The notes under the pieces: model-generated
The model's database searches: none
What the model saw: the letters and a program-made list of their open reading frames with translations, nothing else
What the model was told of the DNA's origin: nothing
Part shown: one piece after another, positions 2,613-63,210 of the stretch
Layout of the letters: each line of letters begins with the position of its first letter
How positions within the stretch are numbered: position 1 is the stretch's first letter
Program-made: the position numbers and the translations under genes
Source: Eledone cirrhosa
Lineage: Eukaryota
Length of the DNA: 64,000 nt
Assembly: GCA_964016885.1 (NCBI GenBank)
Contig: OZ024743.1
Coordinates: 83,762,001 to 83,826,000 of the forward strand
Reading direction: 5' to 3'

Positions 2613-3014
2613 TATATATTGGTAAACGGAATAGAAAATGCTGACAAATTGTTCACAGTTGAAAAATGGTTTAATTAGGAATAAAAGAGTATTAGTGATT
2701 GTATGAGTTAGTATTCAGTTGTGGTTTTAAGTTTTTAAGTTTTTACCGGTTGCGCATTTCTAAATGCTTTTCAAAATAATTTTGAGATAGAGTGTCCGTG
2801 CTGTTTGCTCTGATCAGAGCAAACAGCACGGACACTCTATCTCAAAATTATTTTGAAAAGCATTTAGAAATGCGCAACCGGTAAAAACTTAAAAACTTAA
2901 AACCACAACTGAATACTAACTCATACAATCACTAATACTCTTTTATTCCTAATTAAACCATTTTTCAACTGTGAACAATTTGTCAGCATTTTCTATTCCG
3001 TTTACCAATATATA
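2613..3014. repeat. Spacerless ~400 bp palindrome with decayed HHR motif in each arm
   Basis: Symmetry centre TGATCA at 2811-2816; arms match to the flanking (TA)n. Contains TTGAAAA-GCATT-TAGA-AATGC-GCAAC-CGGTA. Confidence 0.9.
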
Positions 3015-3056
3015 ATAACTTGTGTGTTACACCTCTATTCTTTTAACTATATATAT

Positions 3057-3980
3057 ATATTATTATAAATCATGTCTACAGAATTATTAGATAAACAAAA
3101 TATATACTCCATTTCCTCTGCCAAACGGCACAATCAACCATATAAAAAATCAATTATACTAAGCCATAAGGATAAAAGCTCCTATGAAGAAATCTCCGAC
3201 AAATAAACGAGAGTGGCTTCTTCGCGGTATCCACAGCAGGTTATTTATCCAACATTTCGACAGCATGCATAAATCGACCAAGTACATAATTAACCATATG
3301 CAATTCGGTGTAAAATCAAACATACCGTAACCATCCCTATCATGGTTTCATGATTAAATTTGGCGATATTTGGCTGCGCTTTCGAGCGACAGGCCTACAC
3401 GCCGTCAACAGCCAATCACATTCTTTCCAACTTGACCACGGCCATAGTGTGATTCTTAGCCATTTTTGAATCCAATTTTGGCGCGATCGGCTTGGAATAC
3501 TAAGTGTCTATTTTTGAGTTTATCTCCTGATGATTCCGAACTCAATGGATTTCCTATTAATAGGATATCTAAAAATACGGATAAAACCATGGTAGGGATG
3601 GTTACGGTATGTACACAGTTCTTCTATGTTTGATTTTACACCGAATTGCATATGGTTAATTGTGTACTTGGTCGATTTATGCATGCTGTCGAAATGTTGG
3701 ATAAATAACCTGCTGTGGATACCGCGAAGAAGCCACTCTCGTTTATCTGTCGGAGATTTCTTCATAGGAGCTTTTATCCTTATGGCTTAGTATAATTGAT
3801 TTTTTATATGGTTGATTGTGCTGTTTGGCAGAGGAAATGGAGTATATATTTTGTTTATGTAATAATTCTGTAGACATGATTTATAATAATATATTGCTCT
3901 GAGTATTTAATTTATTAATTCTTCATAGAGCTAAAAAGTGACCGGTTGTAACATATATAAATTTATGTATATGTAAACCT
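3057..3980 (+). mobile_element. HHR-bearing non-coding element (659-bp family) with 5' fold-back inversion
   Basis: Inverted arms 3057-3348/3585-3893; HHR 3522-3599 (ATCTC CTGATGA TTCCG...CGGAT AAAAC CATG GTA GGGAT); homologous to 61751-62499. Confidence 0.75.
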
Positions 3981-3981
3981 T

Positions 3982-4007
<26 letters not shown>

Positions 4008-4012
<5 letters not shown>

Positions 4013-7000
4013 GCAAGTATGAAGAATTATTAGATAAAATATATCCAGTCTTTCCTCACCCTAGTCCGTAGAAATCAACTAGATAAATAATCATTTAAAC
4101 GGGACTATAAGTTTAAAATGTAACTATGAAGAAATAATAGACAAATGATACAGACTATTTTCCGCAATGAACAGTCAGATAAAATTTATCTAGTCTTTTC
4201 TCTTAGCCCGTAGAAATTAACTAGACAAATAATCAATTAAACGGAGCTAAGTCTAAAATATAAGTTAGAAGAAAAAATGCATATAAACTTTACCAAAATT
4301 CCTCTAGTCCCCACTATCGATAGTTTCGCTCGTCCTTTGTGGATATATCCGATCTTGGTATTATCCATGAGGCTTAGAGCTTATCAAGAGACCTCTCAGG
4401 TTTGGACTAAAAATTTCTACAGTGATCGCTGCCAGAAATGAATTCAAAAATGGCTAAGAATCATCACGTGGCTCGTGGTCAAAGTAGAAGGTTGTGAATG
4501 GTGGCCAGGTGGCAGGTAGGCTGGCTGCTAGAAAGAGCAGCCAGATACCGCCTAAAGTTTTACTCTACTGAACGGGAGTATATATTAAATTCATAGGAAT
4601 ATTTACTCTTTTACTCTTTTACCTGTTCCACCCATCCGGCTGAGGCCATGCTGGGGCACCGCCCTTGTCGCTACACATTTTATCTCCAGCCTGTATTGGT
4701 TGACCACTGGTGTAAGAGGGAGTTTGTTGCTGCTGCCCTTAGGTTTCCCTGTGGGCTCATCCGGGATCCTGGATAGCAAGGTGTCGACATGTTTCTTGAA
4801 GACATTCACCTCCACACCATGCAGATCTCTCAGATCCCTCGGCAGCTTGTTGAAGAGTTGAGGGCCCTTGAATCCCAGGCTATTGCAATATCTGCTCCTT
4901 ATTCTAGATGTGGAAGACATTTGGCACCACACAGTGACGTCCTGTTCGACTGTTGGTCCAGCTCCCAATGCCAAAGTTTGGTGCTAGTCCCTCCAGGATT
5001 TTCCACATGTAGATCACTGCGTATCTCTCCCGTCTTCGCTCCAAGGAGTAGAGGTTCAGTTCCTTCAGTCTCTCCCAGTAGCTTGTCTCCTTCATCTTGG
5101 CAATCCTCTTGGTGTAGCTTCGCTGGATTGTCTCAAGCTCCGTGGTTAGTTTGACACTATGGGGTGACCACAACTGGGAGCATTAGTCCAGGCGGCTTAG
5201 GACAGATGTCCTCCATAGTGTTAACATGGTGTCTCGGTCTCTTGTCCGGAAAGTCCTCAAGATCCAGTCAGCGAGTCGTCCGCACATTGTCGCCACTTTC
5301 ATGATGTGTGAGGAAAAAGATGCATCATCGCTCATGTCTATACCCAGGTCTCGTATCGATTTTGACACGGGGATATCGTCCCTCCTGGTCCTTCGTAACT
5401 GAGTTGTACTGTATTTGTGTTTGCAGGTTCATATTGTAGGGCTTGTAATTTGCCGGCATGTTGCTTTCTTCCGCCCATTTGTATATGGCATCCAGATCTT
5501 GTTGTAAAAGGGCAGCGTCAGCCGGGTTTTTGATTACCTGTGCTACCTTAGTGTCATTAGCATAGCTAGTGAGGGATGTTGTATTTACTACAGTGGGCAT
5601 GCCTGAGAGAGCCACCAAAAACAGTAGTGGTCCCAGGACTGTCCCTTGGGGCACCCCACTTGTTATTGATGTTTCCTTTGAGAGGGCCCATTTGCTGCGA
5701 CTGTCTGGCTTCTGTCCTTTAAGAAGTCATGCAACTACTCACCTACTTTTCCAGTTATGCCGAGTCCGTGTAGTTTGTGACATATCATTCCGTGGTCGAC
5801 CTTGTCAAAGGCCTTCGCAAAGTCAAGATATATCACGTCCACATGTGAGCTGTCTAGTAGTTGTTTCAGTACCCAGTCGTAGTGATGTAGCAGCTGTGTA
5901 ATGCATCTCCTTCCTGTGTGAAAGCCAAGCTGCGTGCTAGTCAGGCGGTCATTTTCCTCGAGGAAAGTGATCAGTTTCTTTCTGACGACTCGCTCCATGA
6001 CCTTACTGATATTCGACGTCAGGGAGACTGGCCTATAGTTTTTGGCCTCCGCTCGGCTACCTCATTTATGGATAGGGCATATTGTGCCTTCTTTCAGCTC
6101 CCTGGGTATATACCGCTAGCCAAGGAGCTTCTGAAGAGCGTCTTCAGTGGGGTTGCTAAGGCCCGCTTACATATTTTTAAGAGGACTGCTGGAAATCCAT
6201 CAGGTCCAGCAGCTGAGTCTGTTCTAATTTCATCTATGGCGTACACCACATTCTCCTCCGTTATGTCTATGTGGTTGATGGTCACCATATCTTCATGTAG
6301 TGTTGTGGCATCAAAGAACTCCTCTGGCTTTGTTATTTGCATGCGCCTCAGTGGACATGTGAACACACCTCATGTCTGTTCGTTCAGTATTTCACATATC
6401 CCTTGGGGATTCTCGGTTAATGAACCGTCTTGCAGTGTACCGAGGCAGTTTCTTTTGAAAATTTAAAGAAGGCCTTAGGGTTTGTTTTAATATTTTCTAT
6501 GGTCCTGCTTTCTTTCTTTGCCCTCTCATTTTCATGGGAAAGTTTGAGTGCAGTCTCGGTGTCAAGTAGTGCACGTTTCAAATAGGGTTCCTTCTTGTTC
6601 TTGTTTTCTTGTTGTGCATTCAACTGGTTTGAGAGCTTGGTTCTACGTCAAATGATGATTTTCCTATCTCTGGGAATAAGATTTTTGTGTCTGTTTGTCT
6701 TTTTCTCCGGGACAAACTTTTTGTATATAGTGTGTATCGTTGTCAGGAAGTGTTGGAATTGTGTGTTAGTGTCTTGTGTGGCGGTGTTTTCGCTCCATGT
6801 TTGCTTCCGAATTTCTCTCTTGATCTTTTTCCAGTTAGCCTTGTAGAAGTTAAGGCCGGATAACGTCCGGGTGCTTCTTGATGGTTGTGTCTCTGTTGGT
6901 TCTCTAGGACCACATATCATTAGTTCTACTAAGTTATGATCCGAGAATATTGTTGGTGTCACTTTTACATTGTGGATGAGCACTTCGTTGTTTGTAAAAC

Positions 7001-7861
7001 AGAGGTCCAGGACATTTTCGCCTCTTGTTGGGAAGAGTAATGCTTGTTCCATAAACAGCCTGTGTGTGAGGGCCAGCAGGGATTCCGTCTGTATCAGTTC
7101 TATTGACGTCATTCCAGGGAGGAGGTGGCCCTCAGGCCATTGGACCTTTGGCAGGTTGAAGTCTCCCAGCAGTAGAATGTTGAGACCCTGGTCCAGTTTG
7201 ACAAGGACCTCTTCTATCCTACTGAGGCTATCCTTAAATTTACCCTCATAACTGGGGGCATCGGGCGACCGATATGTGACACATATTAGTGTCTTTAGTT
7301 GCTTCATAAGTACTATCAGTGTGTCACAGACTGAGTTTGAGTGTGTCAACAGTACAATTGGTGTGACATCTTCACGGATATACAGAGCAACCCCACCGTG
7401 AGTTCTCTCCTTCCTGTCCGAACGAAATACAGTATATTTCGGTATATGTATTTCTGCATCTGCTATACTGCTTGTCATGTGCGTTTCGGTTAGTGCCATG
7501 CACAATACTTGATTGCTTATGGCTAAGTCTCCCAGGTAGGAAATTCTACTCATGTTAGTGAGTTTCACCAGGCGTCTGACATTCAGCAGCAGCACTGGTG
7601 TAACTTTAGGGGTGCCAGTAATGGCTGTCGGTATGACACCTGGCCTGGTGTCAGCGGCGGCCACTATATACGGACCTGTATATATTTAGATATATATTTA
7701 GACATAGTCACAGATACATATATGAGTGTGGCTACCTTTCACGGTGTGGCTCAATGAAAAATTTAATTAAGCAAATAATTATTAATCAGAGCTATATATG
7801 AAATTGCAAGTTTGAAGAATTATTAAATGAAATATATCCAGTCTTTCCTCACCCTAGTCCG

Positions 7862-7862
<1 letters not shown>
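4008..7862 (-). mobile_element. Diverged copy of the same HHR family, interrupted by the LINE
   Basis: Direct repeats 4008-4069/7801-7862; 4420-4550 is reverse-homologous to 3360-3490; decayed minus-strand HHR at ~4311-4390 (TTGATAA-GCTC...GAGC-GAAAC-TATCGATAG). Confidence 0.6.
4602..7664 (-). mobile_element. CR1-group LINE, ORF2 (APE endonuclease + reverse transcriptase), frameshifted and inactive
   Basis: APE motifs LGDFNLP, LDLCFTN, SDHNLV (6648-7664); RT motifs DVIYLDFAKAFDKVDH, PQGTVLGPLLFL, YANDTK (mutated YADD); CR1-type C-terminus ERLKELNLYSLERRRER; short tandem 3' tail (GAGTAAAA-like) at 4602-4621. Confidence 0.92.
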
Positions 7863-17881: not shown

Positions 17882-17947
<66 letters not shown>

Positions 17948-17952
<5 letters not shown>

Positions 17953-18273
17953 ATATTAAATAAATGGAAACTATATTTATAAAATCATATTTATTCTGTT
18001 ATATATATTTCAAGGGTACCAAAAACTTTGGTACGCTTTCATCAGATAAAATACAAAGTGTGTTTTATAAATGTTGACATAGCCAAGGAACATACCTTAA
18101 CGGTTGGAAAATTTCAACCGTTAAGGTATGTTCCTTGGCTATGTCAAAATTTATAAAACACACTTTGTATTTTATCTGATGAAAGCGTACCAAAGTTTTT
18201 GGTACCCTTGAAATATATATAACAGAATAAATATGATTTTATAAATATAGTTTCCATTTATTTAATATCATTG
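17948..18273. repeat. ~325 bp fold-back palindrome with HHR in each arm
   Basis: Arms of ~160 bp centred near 18110; plus-strand CTGATGA AAGCGTACCAAA GTT TTTGGTACCCTT GAAATATATA at 18176-18220. Confidence 0.85.
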
Positions 18274-18365
18274 AATACTATACTCCGGAAAACTTGTCGA
18301 GTGCTCTAAATCAGTTATAAACATTTATATTTGTTGAATTACCAACAAATTGAATATCCCTTCTG

Positions 18366-28127: not shown

Positions 28128-28228
28128 AAAATTAGATTAAGGATGACATGTCTGAGAATGTCAGAATCATGCGCCATATCACCTGTGGAAATAAGCTCTA
28201 AGATTCCAGGTAGTAAATCCGAGCATTT

Positions 28229-28878
28229 ATATATAATTAAAAGTAAGATGACGTATGTATGTAAAATAAACACATCAAATAGTGACAGGGGATAATTTGT
28301 GAAGAGTGTAAACATACATAATTACGGAGGTAACATATTAAAGATTAACAAGAACCTAGAATATATATATACCTTTCAATAAAGATTAATCTCCTTTGTA
28401 TATATTCCATTGAAGAAATATATTTCACCATTAATCAGTGAATCATACATGTCAAATCTTGGATCATCGGCAAAGTGGCGTGAAAAGAGTTATCGGCAGC
28501 TAGAAATAACAGCCGATTCCTTTCAACATAATGAGCTCTACTAAAATATACTTAAGAGCCGGCTTGGCGGCGGAACGATGTGTATTTTTAAACTACACGT
28601 GCTTTTACGCCGTTATTCCTTGATTTGCTTGTAGTGTGTGATCATAGATGGTTAAATCTTCTCCTTTGCCGATGATCCGAGATTTGACATTAATGGGGAA
28701 ATATATGGAATATATACAAAGGAGATTAATCTTTATTGAAAGGTATCTATATATATATATTCTAGGTTCTTGTTAATTTTTAATATGTTACCTCCGTAAT
28801 TATGTTTGTTTACACTCTTCACAAATTATCCCCTGTCACTATTTGATGTGTTTATTTTACATACATACGTCATCTTAC

Positions 28879-28891
<13 letters not shown>
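28229..28891. repeat. Fold-back element with decayed HHR
   Basis: Arms 28229-28475/28664-28891; CCGATGA-TCCA...TGGT-GAAATATAT; homologous to fold-back 62988-63210. Confidence 0.8.
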
Positions 28892-28924
<33 letters not shown>

Positions 28925-39759: not shown

Positions 39760-39946
39760 GTGGATTGGCAGTATCGATAGAGGGTCAGACACCATGCCTT
39801 GCAGCATAGAGTTACGACCCTTTATGGTCTGAGTTCAAATCCCGCCGAGGTTAACTTTGCCTTTCATCCTTACGGGGTCGATGAAATAAAGTACCAGTAA
39901 TACACTGGGATAATTGCTGGCCTTGTGCCAAAAGTAGAAACAATTA
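39760..39946 (+). mobile_element. SINE family A with ~17-bp TSD
   Basis: TSD ATTTATTTAGGTTTGTT on both sides. Confidence 0.9.
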
Positions 39947-40339
39947 TTTATTTAGGTTTGTTGGTTCACCACTGGATAGAACTGGTCATTCCGTATGGTC
40001 AATCTCGATGTAATATTAGGGAGAGCACTCAACGTAATGCAACTCACCCGTCTTCGTTAGTGTAGTTGGTGGTGCGAGTACGGAGTTGATTATTATAAAA
40101 TAACAGGAGGCTAGGCTGGTGTAAATCCTTGAAAAGTTTATTATACTATGATCATTTCAATGACCGGGTTCAGTATGAATCCGGTGACGTCATCAGGTAT
40201 TCAAAATATAACAAAGGAATATAACAGATAAAATCCATGGGACTGAAAATCAGAGGGCTGCTAAATAGTCGGTCGTCCTCTTGTCTCTGATTTTCAGCCC
40301 CATGGATTTTATCTGTTATATTCTTTTGTTATATTTTGA

Positions 40340-40397
40340 ATACCTGATGATGTCACCGGATTCATACTGAACCCGGTCATTGAAATGATCATAGTAT
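40340..40397 (+). ncRNA. Type I hammerhead ribozyme
   Basis: ATAC CTGATGA TGTCACCGGATTCA TAC TGAACCCGGTCATT GAAAT GATC ATA GTAT. Confidence 0.8.
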
Positions 40398-40669
40398 AAT
40401 AAACCTTTCAAGGATTTACACCAGTCCAGCCTCCTGTTATTTTATAATAATTAACTCCGTACTCGCACCACCAACTACACTAACGAAGACGGGTGAGTTG
40501 CATTGCGTTGAGTGCTCTCCATAATATTACATCAAGGTTGACCATACGGAATGACCAGTTCTATCCAGTGGTGAACCAACAAACCTAAATATATATATAT
40601 ATATATATATATAGGTTTACGAAGCTAGTCGAAGAGAATCGGTACAGCTTCGGCCGTCTCTTACTTACT

Positions 40670-45526: not shown

Positions 45527-46490
45527 GAAGATAGACATAGAATATTCGAAAATATTCTGTATGTTTATAATAAACATTTTGAAGACCTAATCGCTATAGA
45601 ATAGAATACGTCACGTATTACAATTAGATTCTCGATAAAAGCAAGGGAAGTAACCTACGCGTTTCATTCTTATTAGAAATCTTCAGGATTACATATCCAG
45701 TGCTTTTATCGAGAATGACACAGCTAGAGACTTATAGAATACTTAGCTGTGTACAGGAACTGGTTTGAAAGAGCGGTTGCCGGTCCGGCAGAAATTAGAA
45801 ATTGGATTAAATGCTCTGAAATAGCGATATATATGTGAAGATAGACATAGAATATTCGAAAATATTCTGTATGTTTATAATAAACATTTTGAAGACCTAA
45901 TCGCTATAGAATAGAATACGTCACGTATTACAATTAGATTCTCGATAAAAGCAAGGGAAGTAACCTACGCGTTTCATTCTTATTAGAAATCTTCAGGATT
46001 ACATATCCAGTGCTTTTATCGAGAATGACACAGCTAGAGACTTATAGAATACTTAGCTGTGTACAGGAACTGGTTTGAAAGAGCGGTTGCCGGTCCGGCA
46101 GAAATTAGAAATTGGATTAAATGCTCTGAAATAGCGATATATATGTGAAGATAGACATAGAATATTCGAAAATATTCTGTATGTTTATAATAAACATTTT
46201 GAAGACCTAATCGCTATAGAATAGAATACGTCACGTATTACAATTAGATTCTCGATAAAAGCAAGGGAAGTAACCTACGCGTTTCATTCTTATTAGAAAT
46301 CTTCAGGATTACATATCCAGTGCTTTTATCGAGAATGACACAGCTAGAGACTTATAGAATACTTAGCTGTGTACAGGAACTGATTTTCGAATATTCTATG
46401 TCTATCTTCACATATATATCGCTATTTCAGAGCATTTAATCCAATTTCTAATTTCTGCCGGACCGGCAACCGCTCTTTCAAACCAGTTCC
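45527..46490 (-). mobile_element. Candidate non-LTR retrozyme: ~2.75 tandem 310-bp monomers + terminal inversion
   Basis: ATAGACATAG at 45531, 45841 and 46151; one HHR per monomer; inverted junction-spanning segment 46384-46490. Confidence 0.85.
45650..45692 (-). ncRNA. Minimal type I hammerhead (copies at 45960-46002 and 46270-46312)
   Basis: GTAATC CTGAAGA TTTCT AATA AGAAT GAAAC GC GTA GGTTAC; 6-bp stem I, palindromic ACGCGT stem III. Confidence 0.8.
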
Positions 46491-46632: not shown

Positions 46633-46699
46633 TTTTATCTGATGAAAACACAAATATTATTGCATGATGATGTTTGTTTTTGAAATGCGCATAATAAAA
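46633..46699 (+). ncRNA. Type I hammerhead ribozyme
   Basis: TTTTAT CTGATGA AAACACAAATATTA...TGATGTTTGTTTT GAAAT GCGC ATA ATAAAA. Confidence 0.75.
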
Positions 46700-46820
46700 T
46701 ACATGGAACTCCTTTAACCATCTTTTGATCTTATATTATGTATACTCCAGTCCTACAAACTGTAGAGTGCTTCTTATCCGATATCTGCATTGCTTTATTG
46801 TACTACAATAAAACTCACCT

Positions 46821-49358: not shown

Positions 49359-49433
<75 letters not shown>

Positions 49434-49522
49434 GTATAGACATACATATGAGGGAGTCCAACTAATACCGGCTTTGCTCAATGAACGAATAAAAATCAAC
49501 TTATCAGAGCATAATAAAATTA

Positions 49523-49917
49523 TATTTGGGAAAAGTAAACAAGAAAAAACATTTACCTATTTACTTTGGTGTCCTGACTGCAGTTTCGTTGAGTAATCGA
49601 AGTTTTTTTTAGTATTGTGAGAAGACTCAGCTCCTCGAGAAACTTCTCAATCAAGAAAACTTCTTCCGAGTTATCCGCTACTAGCGATAATTTCGAATGG
49701 AAAATTAACACGTGATTAACGGTCAACAGAAGGGCAGTGATAAGTGAACAATGGCAAGTAACGGGCAGCTAGAAAAAGCAGCCCGATTCAGACTTCTCAC
49801 AGTACTCAAGACTTCCTACAGTCTTAAAAAACCTACGATTACTCAACGAAACTGCAGTCTTGACATCGAAGTAAATAGGAAAAAATGTTTTCTCATCTTG
49901 TTTACTTTTCCCAAATG
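49523..49917. repeat. Fold-back element with HHR remnant
   Basis: Arms 49523-49627/49809-49917; GAAAC TGCA GTC. Confidence 0.7.
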
Positions 49918-50018
49918 CAATTTTATATGTATATAAACTGAGTTTGGAACTAGCTGTTGAAATAGCAAGAGCTCAGCCGTCGGGGTCTCGACTCTTTCAT
50001 ATATATATATATATACAA

Positions 50019-51138: not shown

Positions 51139-51375
51139 AAAAGAGTCAGGACCTCGACGGCAGAGCTCAAGCTGTTTCGACGGAATATATATATATAAGA
51201 CATTTTTTCCAATTCCTATCCGCCCGTCCCTTCAATCTATCTTATTTCTCATTCTTTTTTCTGATGAAGGACTACTGTCCGAAACGTTAAAACACTCTTC
51301 CTACTATTTCAAGCGTTAAGCTAATATATTTCGTCCATATACTGTACCGATTGTGTTGTTATTTATGTTTAAAAA

Positions 51376-51785
51376 GATGAAGTTGGAAATAGAACGGGAG
51401 ATATGTTTAAGGGTCTGTTTTTCGTTTTTGATTCGTCAAAGTGACATTATTGAAAAGGTAGTGTTATTAAAAAGATAGTGTTATTAAAAAAAGATGGACA
51501 ATTCTTTTTTGAAAATTTTGTTTATGGAGTATATAAAGTGTATGGAAAAATTACCGGATTCGATGTATTAATACATCGAATACATTTTAATGCATTTTAA
51601 TACATTTTAATACATCGAATTCGGTAATTTTTCCATACACTTTATATACTCCATAAAAAAATGTTTAAAAAAGAATTGTCCCTCTTTTTTTAATAACACT
51701 ATCTTTATAATAATGTCACTTTGACGAATCAAAAAAGAAAAACAGACCCTTAAACATATCTTCCGTGCTATTTCCAACTTCATCA
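51376..51785. repeat. Fold-back element (same family as 40768-41240)
   Basis: Arms 51376-51572/51609-51785, turning within the HHR stem II remnant. Confidence 0.8.
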
Positions 51786-51829
51786 TTTCTCTATACCCAC
51801 TGTTTTGTATAGAACCTCACTTCCCTTTT

Positions 51830-54025
<2,196 letters not shown>

Positions 54026-54106: not shown

Positions 54107-54151
<45 letters not shown>

Positions 54152-54157
<6 letters not shown>

Positions 54158-54520
54158 AAAATTGAACGGGAACAAAACAGAGAGGCAGTACGAACAAAGG
54201 TTTATTAGTTTCACGCTCTTGAGAGTGGGGTGGTGGTGGGGAACGACGTTTCGGGCATAAGCCCTTCTTCAGGTGAAAAGTGTGTGGGAAGAGAGTTCCA
54301 AGGGTGTGTAGCCGAGTGGTGGAGAGACATATAGCAAAAAGGGGGTCAGAGGAAACGGTGCAAATGGAATTAAAAATAAAGGCATGATCAAAATAAAATT
54401 AAAATGGAGTAACAGGTGGTGCAAGGGTGTAGGCGTGTAGGGATGGTGGCGCGTGGAGGGGGAGAGGAAGACGGGGTGTCCGAGCGGGGAGGGCTGAAGG
54501 TGGTGTGTGTGTGTAGGTGT

Positions 54521-54552
<32 letters not shown>

Positions 54553-57500
54553 ATGTGAAAGCAAGGGTTGGGGGAAGAACGGGGTTGCATGTTCAGAAAG
54601 AGGTGTGTGTGGGGTGGGGGTGTAGGTCGGAGTGTGTGTGCGTGTGTGGATAGAGGGGTGGGGGGAGAGGATTCCGGAGACTGAATGTGTAAATATGTGG
54701 TGGTACGCACGTGTGTGTGTGGTGTTTATGCGTGTTGTGGATGTAGGTGGCGTGTGGGGGAAAAAAATGTTTTTGGGTGTATGTCCGGGGGTGAGTCGTA
54801 AAGGTAATTCCGTAAAAGGATGTGGTGGAATGCTGAGTAAAATCCTTGGGATGCGGTAGATTCTCGGGATCAAGGTTCACATATGTGTAATCCGTGAAGA
54901 GATTGGTCGGAATAGGGGAGATGTGGGGGGCGCGCGCAACAGGAAGTGGTCAGAGGGTCAAAGCAGGAGGAGGGTTGTGTGTCTGTGTGTGCGGGGAGGT
55001 GGTCAGAGAGGCATAGCAGCAGTAGGGTAGAATGGTAAGTGAAGAAAGTCGGTGTATCAGTGTGTGCGGCGGTGCGGTGGACAGGGGAGAGGATGGGTAG
55101 GTGTGAAAGTTGGAGTGAGGAGCGGGTGTGCGTGTATTAGTAGAGTTGTTAGTGGGATGTGTGTGTGTTTGAGAAAAGGGTGTGGGTGGAGCGGGGAGAG
55201 AAGGATGTGGGGGCCGATGGAGGGAGTGTAGTGTACTGGTGTGTGTGTGCGTGTTTGGATGAGTGTGTGTGTGGTGAAGGGGGTGTTAGTGGGTGTTAGT
55301 ATACTGGAGGTGGAGAAAGGGTTGAATGCGGGTGTGAGTGGGGGTCAGTGGTGGTAGGGTGTGTAGAGTGGGTGGTGTAAGAGGGTGTGTGTGTTCGTGT
55401 GCGTAGGGTTGGGGGGTGTTAGTGGTGTTAGTTGCGTGTAGAGTTGGTGGTGTAAGTGGGTGGGTGTGTTCGCGTGCTTGGGGTCACGGGGTGTTAGTGA
55501 GGTTAGTTGCGGGGTGGTGGGATGGAGGTGTGGGGGTGAGAGGTGTGGGGGTGAGAGGTGTGGGGGTGAGGGTTAGTGGTGGTAGTAGGGTGTGTGTTTA
55601 GTGTGAGCGCGTGTATATATGTACCGGTGGGTGTGTGCGTGTGATAAGGAGGGGGAGGAGAAGAAGGGAGGGATGTTAGTATGTTAGTTGGGGAAGGGTG
55701 GTCGGATGTGGGGTGGGGGTGTTAGTATTGTTAGTTGTGGGGTGGGCGGTGAAAAGGAGGGGTGTGTTAGTGGTGTTAGTGGGGGATATGTGTGGGGGAA
55801 GAGGGCGGTCGAAGGCTAAAGGAATAAGGGTGGGGAGTTCAGGCCGGTGGGAGTGTGGGTCTGTAGGGTGAAGATGGTTCGTTGTTCGACCCTGAGGAGA
55901 GTGGCAGGTGTTCCGTGGCATTGGAGTAGGCCACAGACTGTTAGGTGGTGTGCGGAATGTCCAGGGGAACCAAAGTGGCGGACGATGGGGGAACTACCAC
56001 CGAGACGAATATCCCGGAGGTGCTCAGTAAATCTGTCCGCCAGGCGACGTCCAGTCTGTCCGACATAAGTCTCGCTGCACTCCGTGCAGCGAAGTCCGTA
56101 GACTAGGTTGGAGGAGGTGCAGCGGAAGGCATGCTGGACAGAGAGAGAGTGGCCGTTGGGACCCTGGAAGGTGGTGGTGTTGGTGATGTGGGGACAGGTG
56201 TTGCAGCGGGGCCTAGAACAGGGAAAGGAACCGGGGGGAGAGAGCGTGGGTTGGGGGTAGGGAGCTGTGGACGAGGAGGGTGCAGAGATTGTGTGCGCGT
56301 TTGAAGGAGGGAAGTGGTGGGGCTGGGAAGATGTGGGAGGTGGAGGGGTCGGACTGGAGGCGTCGGAAGAGGCGGAGGATGGTGCGGTGGGGGGTATGGT
56401 GGAGGGGTGGTAAGTGATGGGGAAGGGGAGACGGTGGGTGGGTGTGCGGTGGCGTGGGGTTGAGGGTGGTGGAGCGGTGGACAGCACGGGCGCGGGTGAG
56501 AGCGGTGTGAACGAGAGAGGGGGGGTAACCTCTGCGGATGAAATGGCTGACTAGGGAAAGGGCCTGGGACTCAAAGTCAGCATCTCGGCTACAGAGGCGG
56601 CGAATCCTGAGGAGTTGGGAGTAGGGAATAGAGTGCTTAGTGTGTGTGGGGCGGGAAGAGGTGAAGTCGAGGTAGGAGTGGGAGTCGGTGGGTTTGAAGA
56701 AGGCGGGGGTGACGAGGGAGTGGTGGGAGGGGTTGAAGGCGACGGAGATGTCTAAGAAGTGGACGTGGGTGGTGGAGATAGAGGTAGTGAAGTGGAGGGA
56801 GGGGTAGAAGGAGCAGAAGAAGGAGAGAAAGGAGTCGAGCTGTTCTCGGGTGAGGGTCGTGGCTCCGATACAGTCGTCGATGTAACGACCGTACAGTTCG
56901 GGCGTGGGGCCGGTGTACTGGGCAAAGATTTGGGCCTCAACATGGCAAAAAGGTTGGCATAGTTTGGGCCCATTCTTGTACCCATGGCTACCCCCGTGAC
57001 CTGTTGGTAAAACTCACCCGAGAAGGAGAAACAGTTGAGGGTGAGGACCAGCTCGGCGAGGCGAAGGAGGGTGGGGGTGGAGGGGATGGGGAGGGGCGAA
57101 GGTCGAGGTAGTGTTTGAGGGCGCGTAGGCCGTCGGCGTGGGGGATGACGGTATAGAGGGACTTGATGTCTAGGGTGAAGAGGAAGGGCTGTGGGCCGGG
57201 TGGGTAGGTGAAGAAGTCGAAAAGGCGCAGGGCGTGGTTGGTGTCGGAGATGTGGGAGGGGAGGGTGGTGACAAGGGGGGCGAGGATGGAGTCGAGAAAG
57301 GCGGAGATGAGTTCGGTGGGGCAGTTGCAAGCGGAGACGATGGGGCGGCCGGGGTTGTCGGGTTTGTGGAGTTTGGGGAGGAAGTAGATGGTGGGGGTGC
57401 GGGGGTGCGGACGATGAGGTGGGAAGCGGTGGGGGGAGGAGGGAGGAGGAGACAAGGTGTTGGATGGTGGAGGAAACTTGTTGTTGGTAGAGGGGTGTGG

Positions 57501-59353
57501 GATCGGAGGGTAGAGGGCGGTAGAAGAGGGGGTTGCGGAGCTGCCTGAGCGCTTCGGCCGTGTAGAGGTCCGCGCGCCACACCACCACGGCGCCTCCCTT
57601 GTCCACCGGTTTGATGACGATGTCATCTCGGCTACGGAGGGAGCGAAGAGCGAGGAGTTCGCCCCGTGTGATGTTATTCCGTTTGGAACGGTAGCGGAAG
57701 TCGAAACGATTTACGGCGCTACGGCTGGCATCGACGAACGCGTCCAGGGTGCTGGGGCCGGCGTCCAAGAAGATGGTCGTCGGCCCAGGGCGAGAAACGG
57801 GTCTGGGGCGTTCGGAGCCGGTGGCGTTCGGCCGAAATGTGTCTGTAGCTGCGTGCGTCGCACGAATCACTCGACTTCCGTTCGGGTGCGGAACTCGTCG
57901 CTGTGCGGAGTGTGGGGTATGAAGCGAAGGCCTCTACTAAGGAGTGAGCGGTCAGGTGCGGAGAGGGGGAGGTCAGGGGGTATAGTGACAACAAGTGGTG
58001 GGGTTTGGGGGTGTGCGGGGGGAAGGGAGGGTGTGGTGAGGGGTGAGGTGGAGAGTGGAGATTGGGTAGGGGTGTGGGTCGAGGGAAGGGTGGAGAGTGG
58101 TGGGGATGGTTGTGGGGGGCTCATAGGGATGGGCGGGTGGTGGTGGATGGGGGTGGTTGGGAGGAGTGAGTGTAGCTTGCGGGCGTTGGTGGAGGTGAGG
58201 AAGGAGAAGAGGTCGTGGTTGAGGTTTTGGATGAAGAGGAGGATGGAGTGGGCGAGGAGGGGGTGGCAGGTGGAGTTAAGGCGGAGGAGGGTGGGGGTCA
58301 GTTGGTGGTCAAGTTTGCGGAGGGTGGAGCGGGAGGCGCGGATGGAGTTGCGCATTAGGAGGCGTGAGGATCGGGTGAGGATACGTTGGGTGGAGGGGAA
58401 GCGGGGGGGAAGTGTGGAAGTGTAGACGGAAGCCGAGGGGGATAAGGTGGAGGCGGAGGCAGTGGCTGAGTATATGGATGTGGCTGGAGTGCCGGGTTTT
58501 GGCGAAGAGAAGGTAGGAGAGTTGAAGGGCAGAGGGGAGATAGCAGGGTGGGAGGAGGGGGTGAGGAAAAGTTTGAGGCTAGTGTGTAGTTGGTGGAGAA
58601 AGGATCTCAGGCTGGGCATGGTGGGCGTTGGGTGAAAGCAGGAGGAGGGATGAGAAAGCAGGTGTGTGAAGCGGGGTGGTGTTGAACGAAGGAGTGAGTG
58701 CGAAGGATAGGCAGAGACGGGGAAGGGAAAATGAAACAGAAAAAACGTAAGGAGGGGAGAGTATACACAGGAAAATCAAAGACCAAAAATCATAAACGTA
58801 CAAACACAGGCAATCATGGACAAAAAAATCATAGACAGAAATAAACAAGTACAGTAAATAAATAAATCAAAAAGTAATGCAAAGAAAGGAAAAAACAAGT
58901 GTGGGAAGGTGTGTGGAAAGTTCAGAGAGTGGTCACGGCGGATTAGATCGGGGTTGAGCCGGTAGTCAGGTTATATTCCAAAGGTATGGAAGCCGTGTGA
59001 GCGTGTATTGTATAGTGAAAAATTGAACGGGAACAAAACAGAGAGGCAGTACGAACAAAGGTTCATTAGTTTCACGCTCTTGAGAGTGGGGTGGTGGTGG
59101 GAAACGACGTTTCGGGCATAAGCCCTTCTTCAGGTGAAAAGTGTGTGGGAAGAGAGTTCCAAGGGTGTGTAGGGGAGTGGTGGAGAGACATATAGCAAAA
59201 AGGGGGTGAGAGGAAACGGTGCAAATGGAATTAAAAATAAAGGCATGATCAAAATAAAATTAAAATGGAGTAACAGATGGTGGAAGGTTGTGGGGCGTGT
59301 AGGGGTGGTGGCGGTGGAGTGGGGAGGGCTGAAGGTGGTGTGTGTGTAGGTGT

Positions 59354-59398
<45 letters not shown>

Positions 59399-59632
59399 CA
59401 AGTGTTGGGGGAAGAACGGGGTTGCATGTTCAGGAAGAGGTGTGTGTGGGGTGGGGTGTAGGTCGGAGTGTGTGTGCGTGTGTGGATAGAGGCGTGGGGG
59501 GAGAGGATTCCGGAGGCGGAATGTGTAAATATGTGGTGGTACGCACGTGTGTGTGTGGTGTTTATGCGTGTTGTGAATGTAGGTGGCGTGTGGGGGAAAA
59601 AAATGTTGTTGGGTGTATGTCCGGGGGTGAGT
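54152..59632 (-). mobile_element. Neptune-type Penelope-like retrotransposon with direct pLTRs
   Basis: pLTRs 54152-54796 and 59013-59632, each with CTGAAGA AGGGC TTAT GCCC GAAAC GTC; left end joined to (TA)n. Confidence 0.93.
55816..58619 (-). pseudogene. Frameshifted PLE ORF: N-terminal domain, RT, Cys linker, GIY-YIG endonuclease
   Basis: LLSRGLRFIP; DIVIKPVDKGGAVVV; YFLPKLHKPDNPGRPIVS; LDIKSLYTVIP; GVAMGTRMGPNYANLF; YGRYIDD (56875-56895); CSRPRCNTC; NLVYGLRC...YVGQTGRRLADRFTEH; PTGLN. Confidence 0.92.
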
Positions 59633-59850
59633 TGGGCACAATCGAAAGAAAAGAGCAATTAGCAAATTCGCCAGCTTCTTCATTTCAAATTTTCACTTCT
59701 CTTTTCTATCGCCTCTGAAAGATCTGAGATCTGATGGTATTTAAAACTATGAGACTATTTGGTAATGCAAAAATGAGTCAAACATACACATACATACATA
59801 CATACATACATAGATACATACATGTATACACACACACACACATACACACA

Positions 59851-61338: not shown

Positions 61339-61591
61339 TATAAGAGAAAGAAATCGAAAATGCAACTGAAGTCCTTTAAGTATATTTATTTATTTACTAA
61401 ACCGGTTTCACAGTTATGCTTTTCAAAAGTAACATTGAGATGGAGGGTTTGTGTTTCTGTTGTGGTTTGTCAAACACAAACCCTCCATCTCCATTTTACT
61501 TTTGAAAAGCATAAGAACTGTGAAACCGATAAAGTAAATAAATAAATATTCTTAAAAGACTCCAGCTGCATTTTCGATTTCTTTTCCTTAT
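61339..61591. repeat. Fold-back element with HHR remnant
   Basis: Arms 61339-61455/61472-61591; TTGAAAAGCATAA...TGTGAAACCG; right flank homologous (reverse) to 26880-26985. Confidence 0.8.
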
Positions 61592-61666
61592 ACTTTCACC
61601 CATGTAAGACATCTCGCTTTTTTTTGTCTTTTTTTTTTGAAAAAAACCCTCATTTTCTTATTTATA

Positions 61667-61750
<84 letters not shown>

Positions 61751-61755
<5 letters not shown>

Positions 61756-62491
61756 TTTTTATATAGTTCATTATGCTAATTGGGAGAGGAAATAGTATAT
61801 ATTTTATCTTGTGATTCTATAGACATGTTTTATGATATATAGCTCTGATTGTTTAATTTATTAATTTTTCATTGAGCCAAAAAGTGACCAGTTGCAAAAC
61901 ACGTATATGTATGTGTATGTATATATATATGTAAACTTTTATATGTAATAATCTCCCACTAGGTTGAGATACAAATTTGGCTGTATTGTGCTGTACTTTC
62001 TAGCAAAAATGCCACCAGTCGTAAGCAACTACCACACCCCTTCCAACTTGACCGCGACTACGTCACGATTTTTAGCCATTTTGAAATGATTTCTTGGTGC
62101 GATCGTTTTGGAAAATTTAATGTCTAGATATGAGCGAGCTTCCTGAAGAATCCGGCGCTCGAGTTTATATAATTATTACATAATTATTGGATAACTCAAA
62201 ACACGGACGAAACCATGGTAGAGGCATTTAAGTGTATTCTATTTTCTCCTAGTTTATTTTAAACCTAATTCTGCTTAGTTGACTGTATCTAGGCGATTAC
62301 GCTGTCGAAATATTCGATAAATATTCCACTACGGCCGACGCGAAGCGCTAGTTTTGGTTATTTGTTGGAGATTCCTTCATAGAAGCCTCATTCATATAGC
62401 CTGGTCTATTCGATTTTTTATATAGTTAATTATGCTAATTGGGAGAGGAAATAGTATATATTTTATCTTGTGATTCTATAGACATGTTTTA

Positions 62492-62499
<8 letters not shown>
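61751..62499 (+). mobile_element. Candidate retrozyme: 659-bp monomer with ~88-bp terminal redundancy
   Basis: Direct repeats at 61751 and 62410; HHR 62138-62225 GCTTC CTGAAGA ATCCG...CGGAC GAAAC CATG GTA GAGGC; (TA)n on both sides. Confidence 0.8.
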
Positions 62500-62524
<25 letters not shown>

Positions 62525-62533
<9 letters not shown>

Positions 62534-62920
62534 TAATAACATTCGATTCGTTTGCAATTATGCAAACAAGCCTCAATTTTATAGCCATGTCAGTAGAATG
62601 AACACTTCATTCTTGCTCTTGTGTTGGTATTCTGTTCGTATGCCATCACAAGAGCAAGAATGAAGTGTTCATTCTACTGACATGGCTATAAAATTGAGGC
62701 TTGTTTGCATAATTGCAAACGAATCGAATGTTATTAGGATTGGCAGTATCGGTAGAGGGTCGGACGTCATGCTTTGACGCATAGAGTTACGGCCCTTTCC
62801 ATTCTGAGTTCAAATCCCGCCGAGATCAACCGTCCTTACGGGATCGGTAAAATAAAGTACCAGTAATGTACTGGGTTATTGCTGGCCTTGTGCCAAAAGT
62901 AGAAACAATTATTAATATTC
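62525..62920. repeat. Fold-back palindrome interrupted by SINE family A (62737-62911)
   Basis: Arms 62534-62629/62640-62736; symmetry resumes after the SINE (ATTATTAATATT). Confidence 0.8.
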
Positions 62921-62987: not shown

Positions 62988-63210
62988 ATATCAACTAGAA
63001 ATAGATTGACATATATATATATATATATATAAAATAAATACATGAAACAATCACAGGGAATAATTTGTAAAGAATGTAGGCACACATAGCTAGGTAGGTA
63101 ACTAATTAAAGTTTGACTAGAACTGCCTACATTCTTTACAAATTATTCCCTGTGATTGTTTCATGTATTTATTTTATATATATATATGTCAATCTATTTC
63201 TAGTTGATAT
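62988..63210. repeat. Fold-back element (family of 28229-28891)
   Basis: Arms 62988-63082/63124-63210. Confidence 0.8.

Follow-up and report, generated by a model that had tools for sequence, protein, structure and literature searches.

A high-copy, non-coding repeat of Eledone cirrhosa with a predicted long-stem-II hammerhead and the insertion footprint of Penelope-like elements

The described systems closest to the repeat family reported here are the endonuclease-bearing (EN+) Penelope-like elements (PLEs) and the animal retrozymes; what we say of them is drawn from the accessible parts of the papers cited. EN+ PLEs leave a footprint of partial tandems, an inverted 5'-truncated copy, a one-sided tail and a bias for (TA)n (PMC8557442), and Neptune, Hydra and Naiad PLEs are all reported to have a (TA)n or microsatellite bias (PMC4209133; PMC8557442; PMC11167929). 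For the anole, a purified PLE protein has been seen to cleave AT-rich DNA on both strands and to initiate at two sites within the RNA, the distance between which sets the tail (PMC11167929), and the idea that PLEs copy a circle for more than one unit dates from 2014 (PMC4209133). Retrozyme circles of mussel, coral and axolotl measure 200-400 nt (PMC7229834). A 2026 preprint, in which no mollusc was sampled, argues that animal retrozymes derive from the partial tandem repeats (pLTRs) of PLEs, gives them consensus lengths of 51-972 bp (with a mean of 650 bp in ray-finned fish) and defines an active element by at least two tandem hammerhead-bearing units (bioRxiv 10.64898/2026.07.22.740005). For cephalopods, the paper on the giant squid genome goes no further than a count of 235 Rfam hammerheads. 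In the literature searched, which did not cover subscription papers, Repbase or Dfam, we found no description of cephalopod families of the kind reported here or of their long-stem-II build.

We analysed a stretch of 64,000 nucleotides of Eledone cirrhosa (GenBank assembly GCA_964016885.1, contig OZ024743.1, positions 83,762,001 to 83,826,000 of the forward strand), hereafter the window, in which positions are counted from the first letter. It contains copies of a real family: a highly repeated, non-coding mobile element with a predicted self-cutting RNA that has an unusually long and likely knotted arm. With moderate confidence, we read the family as a repeat of high copy number that codes for no protein, contains a predicted type I hammerhead and is likely a non-autonomous PLE of the retrozyme type, probably copied from circular RNA.

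One member, copy 1, occupies 61751-62499 on the plus strand and consists of a 659-nt unit (61751-62409; numbered u1 to u659 from 61751) followed by a 90-nt partial second lap (62410-62499). In a self-comparison, 61751-61840 and 62410-62499 are identical at 89 of 90 positions at an offset of 659, which bears out the terminal redundancy of about 88 bp and the period given in the initial annotation of this locus. Copy 1 lies within a (TA)n target, with a left flank at 61661-61750 and a right flank at 62500-62526, the latter continuing the element's own internal ATATATA; judged by its sequence, it reads as a PLE-type partial tandem. Its GC content is 35% and its longest stop-free frame 54 amino acids. 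A tblastn search with 46 PLE and LINE queries detected no coding remnant in the unit (best E 0.06). Since the frame scan and tblastn also revealed no open reading frame (ORF) for RT and GIY-YIG in it, the unit is not an autonomous PLE. In public data, 1,340 contigs from one run fall on 61766-62430, as do 2,162 of 12.5 million and 1,603 of 12.8 million raw reads from two DNA runs, so that the unit is highly repeated; exact-pattern scans for the family returned 0 loci in metagenome contigs and 0 in viral contigs. In an alignment of the copies, the best-conserved block 5' of the hammerhead is TTGACC ... TTAGCCATTTT (62040-62085, plus strand), a candidate promoter or protein-binding site; within it, GCCATTTT resembles what we take to be a YY1 site.

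The initial annotation had recognized three copies, all of which are real, and we add a distant fourth. Copies 2 and 3 are about 61-69% identical to copy 1 (362/523 aligned columns for copies 1 and 2, 325/539 for copies 1 and 3), and copies 1 to 3 diverge by 31-40% from one another; in all three the unit joins up with itself and leaves no room for an ORF. Copy 2, previously placed at 3057-3980 with an inversion, spans 3055 to about 3985 and is indeed arranged head-to-head, with 99% complementarity between 3055-3324 and 3625-3894. Its short, inverted arm (3055-3349, minus strand) runs from about u457 to a site that we term site A, where it ends in (TA)n; its long arm (3350-3985, plus strand) carries a hammerhead at 3522-3599 and runs from about u223 across the lap junction to about u190, at a site that we term site B. 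Copy 3 lies on the minus strand from 7862 to 4008, extends from about u24 to u90 of a second lap and, as had been annotated, is interrupted by a LINE. Its 5' part (7675-7862, minus strand, about u24-193) includes roughly 65-70 nt of redundancy, and its 3' part (4008-4610, minus strand) ends at site A in (TA)n and contains a decayed hammerhead (4392-4307) and an internal duplication of about 145 nt. The redundancy of copy 3, first given as about 60 bp, aligns over 71 columns, of which 66 are identical, a few TA bases among them. The intervening LINE, which lies outside the family (4615-7672, minus strand, boundaries approximate), has broken frames; a domain search identified AP endonuclease (E 8e-12) and RT (E 1e-6) domains in it, and the closest named relative of its protein is from Octopus sinensis (55% identity). 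Copy 4 (49432-49926) is a shorter, distant relative, found by its similarity to copy 3 (BLAST E 1.6e-8; 230/408 aligned columns identical), and is again head-to-head, with a minus arm at 49791-49432, a plus arm at about 49793-49926 and a decayed hammerhead with a CTGCAG palindrome at 49643-49571. The designation of a 659-nt family thus holds for copy 1, but the period is limited to that copy; an internal duplication as the cause of the unit size was considered and set aside, the duplication being present in copy 3 only.

Copies 2 and 3 adjoin tail to tail within one (TA)n tract (3985-4008), from which it follows that one of them probably inserted into the flank of the other. We also observed that the long arms of copies 2 and 4 begin at near-identical unit positions, 223 and 231 (3350-3356 and 49791), and that the short arms of both begin within hammerhead stem II, upstream of the cut site (two cases).

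The hammerhead of copy 1 (62138-62225, plus strand) was predicted by motif descriptor and folding. It is of type I and comprises stem I (62138-42/62221-25), CUGAAGA (62143-49), a stem II domain of 59 nt (62150-62208), GAAA (62209-12) and a palindrome (62212-19), with the predicted cut after the GUA at 62220 (u470). The same layout of a 5-bp stem I, CUGANGA, a long stem II, GAAA, a palindrome and UH is found in all four copies, the stem II domain measuring 59, 49, 53 and 44 nt in copies 1 to 4; the 50-60 nt originally estimated was close for the first three. Stem I is GCTTC/GAGGC at 62138/62221 and ATCTC/GGGAT at 3522, as had been reported, and 19 of 20 of its pairs are kept over the four copies despite their different sequences. 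The change had been called compensatory, and the pairing does hold; however, C62225 is private to copy 1, a T standing there in 184 of 185 and 97 of 98 plus-mate reads. Likewise, the CCATGG of stem III, described as conserved, is shared by copies 1 and 2 but is replaced by CTATCGATAG in copy 3 and by CTGCAG in copy 4. Different subfamilies thus have different palindromes, which suggests that self-complementarity, through which two such ribozymes can cut as a dimer (PMC4209133), is under selection. The proximal stem II helices are also of three different kinds across the copies. Such pairing, kept across about 40% divergence, suggests selection on what is predicted to be a working ribozyme and so favours the explanation that we prefer.

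The core is without mismatch in copy 1, lacks G12 in the forward arm of copy 2 and is damaged in copies 3 and 4; none of the window copies has a fully canonical core. The 10.1-11.1 pair is A.C in copy 1, U.U in copy 2 (whose inverted arm retains G12) and G-C in copies 3 and 4, while among the relatives represented in the loose-end rows listed the consensus base at 10.1 is G for one read run but A for the second. Natural hammerheads with U10.1-U11.1 are known (PMC3088659, accessible part), and U.U at this position also occurs in two other hammerhead families within the window. The predicted fold of the stem II domain has a helix of 4-5 bp, then an internal loop and then a distal hairpin; for copies 1 to 3, 492-499 of 500 shuffles fold less well. 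Once the motif is trimmed, the minimum-energy fold is more stable than the active one by 0.7, 3.6 and 1.7 kcal/mol in copies 1, 2 and 3, and local folding of 62125-62240 gave a non-hammerhead hairpin (z -0.87). A distal extension of stem I was considered and rejected, as the helices are present but out of register between copies, and a scrambled-order (type-SGC-like) hammerhead was ruled out by the order of the elements, which is that of canonical type I.

Applied to the window, our descriptor matched 11 motifs, against 0 in any one of six block-wise dinucleotide shuffles; three of the 11 come from this family, copy 4 being too decayed to be matched, and the others include those at 46639 and 61429. 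Rfam, in contrast, yielded no hammerhead match up to E 10 at 61900-62420, where it returned six chance-level rows, and the best 150 of its 321 matches over the whole window were microRNA-like matches to simple repeats or palindromes and two weak matches to viral UTRs. The long stem II is the likely reason for this miss. Similarly, the core descriptor of PMC8557442 uses, in the part of that paper seen, a spacer of 7-17 nt, which the long stem II of the present hammerheads could not match. The initial annotation had suspected that minimal hammerhead searches could overlook this build, and the descriptor, Rfam and tblastn results together support the reading of a hammerhead-bearing, non-coding retroposed family missed by standard models.

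Just upstream of stem I in copy 1, GAGCG (62132-62136, plus strand) is complementary to CGCTC (62156-62160, plus strand) on the 5' side of the stem II internal loop, and we consider the two to be the strands of a candidate pseudoknot. The corresponding segments are TTGAGTT/AACTCAA in copy 2 and TGAGAA/TTCTCA in copy 4, so that 5-7 bp can form in three of the four copies; copy 3 offers only 4 bp. Two positions change on both sides (CG:CG, TT:AA, AA:TT), i.e. the candidate helix covaries, and in three of the four copies the best partner of the loop is its own upstream strand, the exception being that the upstream strand of copy 4 also pairs over 6 bp with the loop of copy 2. The summed helix length of 22 was reached in 16 of 20,000 shuffles, a figure that overstates the case because the copies are related and the windows were picked after the match had been seen. 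Pseudoknots between stems I and II have been predicted in about 40% of hammerheads, across all three types (PMC3088659, accessible part). Modelled in this way, the present one would be a known type of contact in a build of which we found no description in the literature searched. It differs from known pseudoknotted hammerheads in the position of the partner strand, immediately 5' of an open 5-bp stem I, and in the pairing of that strand with the internal loop of a long stem II that has a variable cap hairpin; this arrangement, together with a dimer-type stem III, was not encountered in the accessible part of PMC3088659. We regard this contact as the most testable new piece of the system.

When the copies are mapped on a doubled unit, their ends follow a simple rule. 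Four of the six arms (copy 1, the inverted arm of copy 2, copy 3 and the plus arm of copy 4) end at site A, the internal ATATATA at u85-91 (61835-61841, plus strand), whose second-lap counterpart ends copy 1 at 62499. Site A is one of eight TA-rich sites in the unit and the one at which genomic (TA)n takes over, and we infer that it is the priming site. A second TA-rich 3' end, the site B region (61920-61945, plus strand), lies about 80-100 nt past site A and is used by two arms only, the forward arm of copy 2 and, approximately, the minus arm of copy 4; it would correspond to the 'tail' end. The one-sided extension in these two arms is thus 80-100 nt, as against the published PLE tail of 30-40 bp. 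The 5' ends, on the other hand, vary (u1, about u24, u223 and about u457). Raw reads are consistent with a fixed 3' end: in two DNA runs, 151 and 159 loose-end reads lie behind 61841 (about 37% and 42% of the depth just upstream, which averages about 404 and 375); their consensus is (TA)n, followed by mixed sequence, and these are the largest piles among the 18 loose-end rows listed (with 262 further rows). Among the same 18 of these rows, no pile of 5' ends is seen at the predicted cut site. Summed contig depth, which is not a copy number and is confounded by RAD reads ending at AATT sites, reaches its highest value, 290k, immediately before site A, drops to 127k behind it (61858-61880) and to 29k across site B (61950-61972), a stretch that the read tables skip, and amounts to 5-34k around and before the hammerhead; a further depth profile had the same shape. 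This profile is as expected from fixed 3' ends combined with 5' truncation.

These ends bear directly on the suggestion of the initial annotation that different start points indicate circularity, i.e. that a circular RNA is reverse-transcribed from arbitrary points and the genomic copies are its free circular permutations. The 5' ends do differ, as had been said, and two copies exceed one lap; however, the 3' ends are common, at the TATATA of u85-91, and fixed in the window as well as in the reads, and the 5' ends are ordinary truncations. Free permutation is therefore largely refuted, and we give it very little weight. The initial annotation had itself named fixed ends as an observation that would count against its proposal: they are found on the 3' side, in four of six arms and in the raw reads, and the 5' ends remain variable.

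Fixed ends, partial tandems, head-to-head arms and (TA)n targets together make up the PLE footprint, and the family is thus most likely a non-autonomous, PLE-mobilized element of the retrozyme type; that a Penelope-like enzyme mobilizes it we consider highly probable. Several characters of the EN+ group are represented, namely a partial tandem (pLTR), variable 5' truncation with a fixed 3' end, an inverted 5'-truncated copy joined head-to-head (copies 2 and 4) and a bias for a microsatellite (TA)n target. Suitable machinery exists in the genome, to judge from a full-layout PLE within the window itself (54150-59660, minus strand), which comprises RT, a C-x4-C-x2-C linker (Neptune-like), GIY-YIG and pLTRs. 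Its frames are broken by shifts and stops and its sense strand is very C-rich; its GIY-YIG domain scores E 0.0025 in Pfam, below the curated cut-off, and has 28 relatives. The pLTRs, of about 620-650 bp, are identical at 597 of 617 positions, with a minimal hammerhead near 54265 and 59125, and the element ends at an internal TATA, by the same rule as the family. We do not identify it as the family's partner: the unit has no likeness to its pLTR (score 25, against 22-27 for shuffles), and our comparison, in which this PLE was the candidate, found no autonomous partner.

Two accounts would dispense with a self-propagating family of this kind. According to one, an autonomous PLE gave rise to the copies, either as its 3' ends or by independent deletions; a 5' truncation that leaves a solo terminal repeat is seen in most PLE insertions (bioRxiv 10.64898/2026.07.22.740005, accessible part), and the pLTRs of the window PLE are similar in size to the unit. 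We judge this improbable, in that the unit closes without an ORF gap in three copies that are 31-40% diverged and none of the 18 loose-end rows listed (262 further rows) looks coding by eye. According to the other, slippage, unequal crossover or fold-back repair at (TA)n produced the copies at the level of DNA, without an RNA step, in a window where (TA)n (183 runs, 6.9% of bases) and palindromes are frequent. Such an origin leaves unexplained why dispersed copies share one end, why their strand polarity matches that of the hammerhead and why the same end rule holds in a PLE of intact layout, and it seems to us most improbable.

For mobilization by a Penelope-like enzyme, the form of the template is a separate question. 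Copies 1 and 3 are longer than one lap, and all six arms that extend as far as the predicted cut site at u470 continue past it; a circular RNA is possible on these grounds, although a linear, uncut transcript gives the same pattern. Given PLE mobilization, we lean slightly towards a circular template. In its favour, a 310-nt sister hammerhead family in the window is identical across successive laps at 545 of 545 positions, circles are known from related elements of coral, mussel and axolotl (PMC7229834, accessible part), and the long arms of copies 2 and 4, if counted from site B, stop about 35-40 nt short of a full lap (two cases). Against it, the circular fold of the copy 1 unit (-137 kcal/mol; z -0.26 against 40 shuffles) is no better than that of shuffles, whereas extensive self-pairing is predicted for the retrozyme circles in the literature (PMC7761336, accessible part).

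The alternative is that the PLE machinery works from linear RNA, either a transcript of a tandem master locus that stays uncut or linear monomers combined with jumps between templates, with the hammerhead as a passenger or acting late; we take this to be a possible but less probable course. Cleavage by a monomer with a single hammerhead is not to be expected where stem III is palindromic (PMC4209133), and for the anole PLE, in the part of the study available, unprocessed RNA was the main template in vitro and hammerhead mutants did not affect insertion (PMC11167929). Furthermore, no copy of this family in the window is longer than 1.14 laps, and the start of the long arms of copies 2 and 4 at u223-231 could mark a start of transcription. 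Copies 1 and 3, however, extend about 200 nt upstream of u223, where the step in contig depth is small (29k to 34k); the arms together require at least 1.29 contiguous laps of template; and the retained pairing described above, suggestive of selection on a working ribozyme, sits poorly with a passenger role.

We hypothesize that, with a circular template, the cycle would run as follows. A tandem master locus would be transcribed, and two hammerheads, each docked by its stem II pseudoknot, would pair through the palindromic stem III and cut out a monomer, which would then be ligated. A borrowed Penelope-like RT and GIY-YIG endonuclease would nick (TA)n; reverse transcription would start at the internal TATATA of site A, and that of the other strand at site B, about 100 nt downstream. 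Stopping at variable points, the cDNAs would produce 5'-truncated arms, head-to-head pairs and copies of just over one lap. A bolder version, which is unlikely though worth stating, posits an old and still-spreading octopus-type superfamily of circular RNAs of 450-730 nt that combine a pseudoknotted long stem II with a palindromic stem III restricting activity to dimers, and from which PLEs copy the circle from two fixed sites, the long arm stopping on return to its start. If this were true, the genome would preserve, in these copies, the traces of a circular PLE template, together with a ribozyme class hidden from current searches.

The window holds further elements of related appearance. The young 310-nt hammerhead family (45527-46490) consists of about 2.76 identical laps on the minus strand (310/310 and 235/235 identity between laps) that end, by the same rule, at an internal TATATAT in (TA)n; its 108-nt inverted arm runs about 75 nt past the TATATAT end, and its stem II is short, with U.U at the base. 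A third family (51970-53990) has cores at 52272 and 52911 on the minus and 53634 on the plus strand, a CTAG palindrome and U.U at the base of stem II, in a nested direct and head-to-head arrangement between (TA)n tracts. An isolated descriptor match at 46634-46700, with an intact core, a 36-nt stem II, a TGCGCA palindrome and AT-only stems, may be due to chance or represent another family. There are also many palindromes of 150-650 bp of non-simple sequence, most of them flanked by (TA)n (2613-3014, 17944-18277, 28225-28896, 39945-40595, 51372-51788, 61347-61584, 62534-62736 and 63032-63174); that at 2613-3014 is perfect and looks related by eye to the one at 61347-61584. These may be short two-armed PLE insertions. 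Finally, 62737-62880 is a very high-copy SINE-like repeat with a summed contig depth, not a copy number, in the millions; it resembles what we take to be octopus tRNA-derived SINEs.

In comparison with known systems, the family works like a non-autonomous PLE or an animal retrozyme, and retrozyme membership is likely. We stress that this membership is incomplete, since none of the four window copies, of at most 1.14 laps, has two hammerheads in tandem and the circle is here only proposed. Like animal non-LTR retrozymes, the family is non-coding, has a GC content under 50%, a type I hammerhead, a repeated unit and a proposed PLE partner, and monomer-like dispersed copies such as those found here are described for them, too (PMC7229834; bioRxiv 10.64898/2026.07.22.740005; PMC7761336, accessible parts). 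The 659-nt unit is longer than the characterized circles of coral, mussel and axolotl, which measure 200-400 nt (PMC7229834); its size, which the initial annotation set above metazoan retrozymes of a few hundred nt, is not exceptional, as it lies within the 51-972 bp of the preprint's consensus lengths (bioRxiv 10.64898/2026.07.22.740005). Its stem II of 44-59 nt contrasts with about 4 bp in animal non-LTR retrozymes and a helix II of 6-8 bp in published minimal PLE hammerheads, as far as the accessible texts describe them. With the hammerheads of EN+ PLE pLTRs it has in common a short stem I and a palindromic stem III suited to dimer cleavage (PMC4209133), and with EN+ PLEs themselves the fixed internal start sites (PMC11167929). 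It differs from them in having no ORF and in a tail that would be 80-100 nt; moreover, the start site of the anole PLE is not homologous to its target (PMC11167929, accessible part), whereas site A matches the target. Chlamys PLEs such as MRC1 similarly include non-autonomous derivatives that form pLTRs and head-to-tail insertions, but are algal and mostly lack a canonical hammerhead (PMC8557442, accessible part). Since the class, the footprint and the rolling-circle model are already published, the surprise is modest. What the family adds is a cephalopod-type case that links retrozymes and PLEs; as Rfam and short-spacer descriptors miss its build, counts of animal hammerheads are probably low, and its fixed start sites and copies of just over one lap lead to clear predictions on whether PLEs copy a circular or a linear template.
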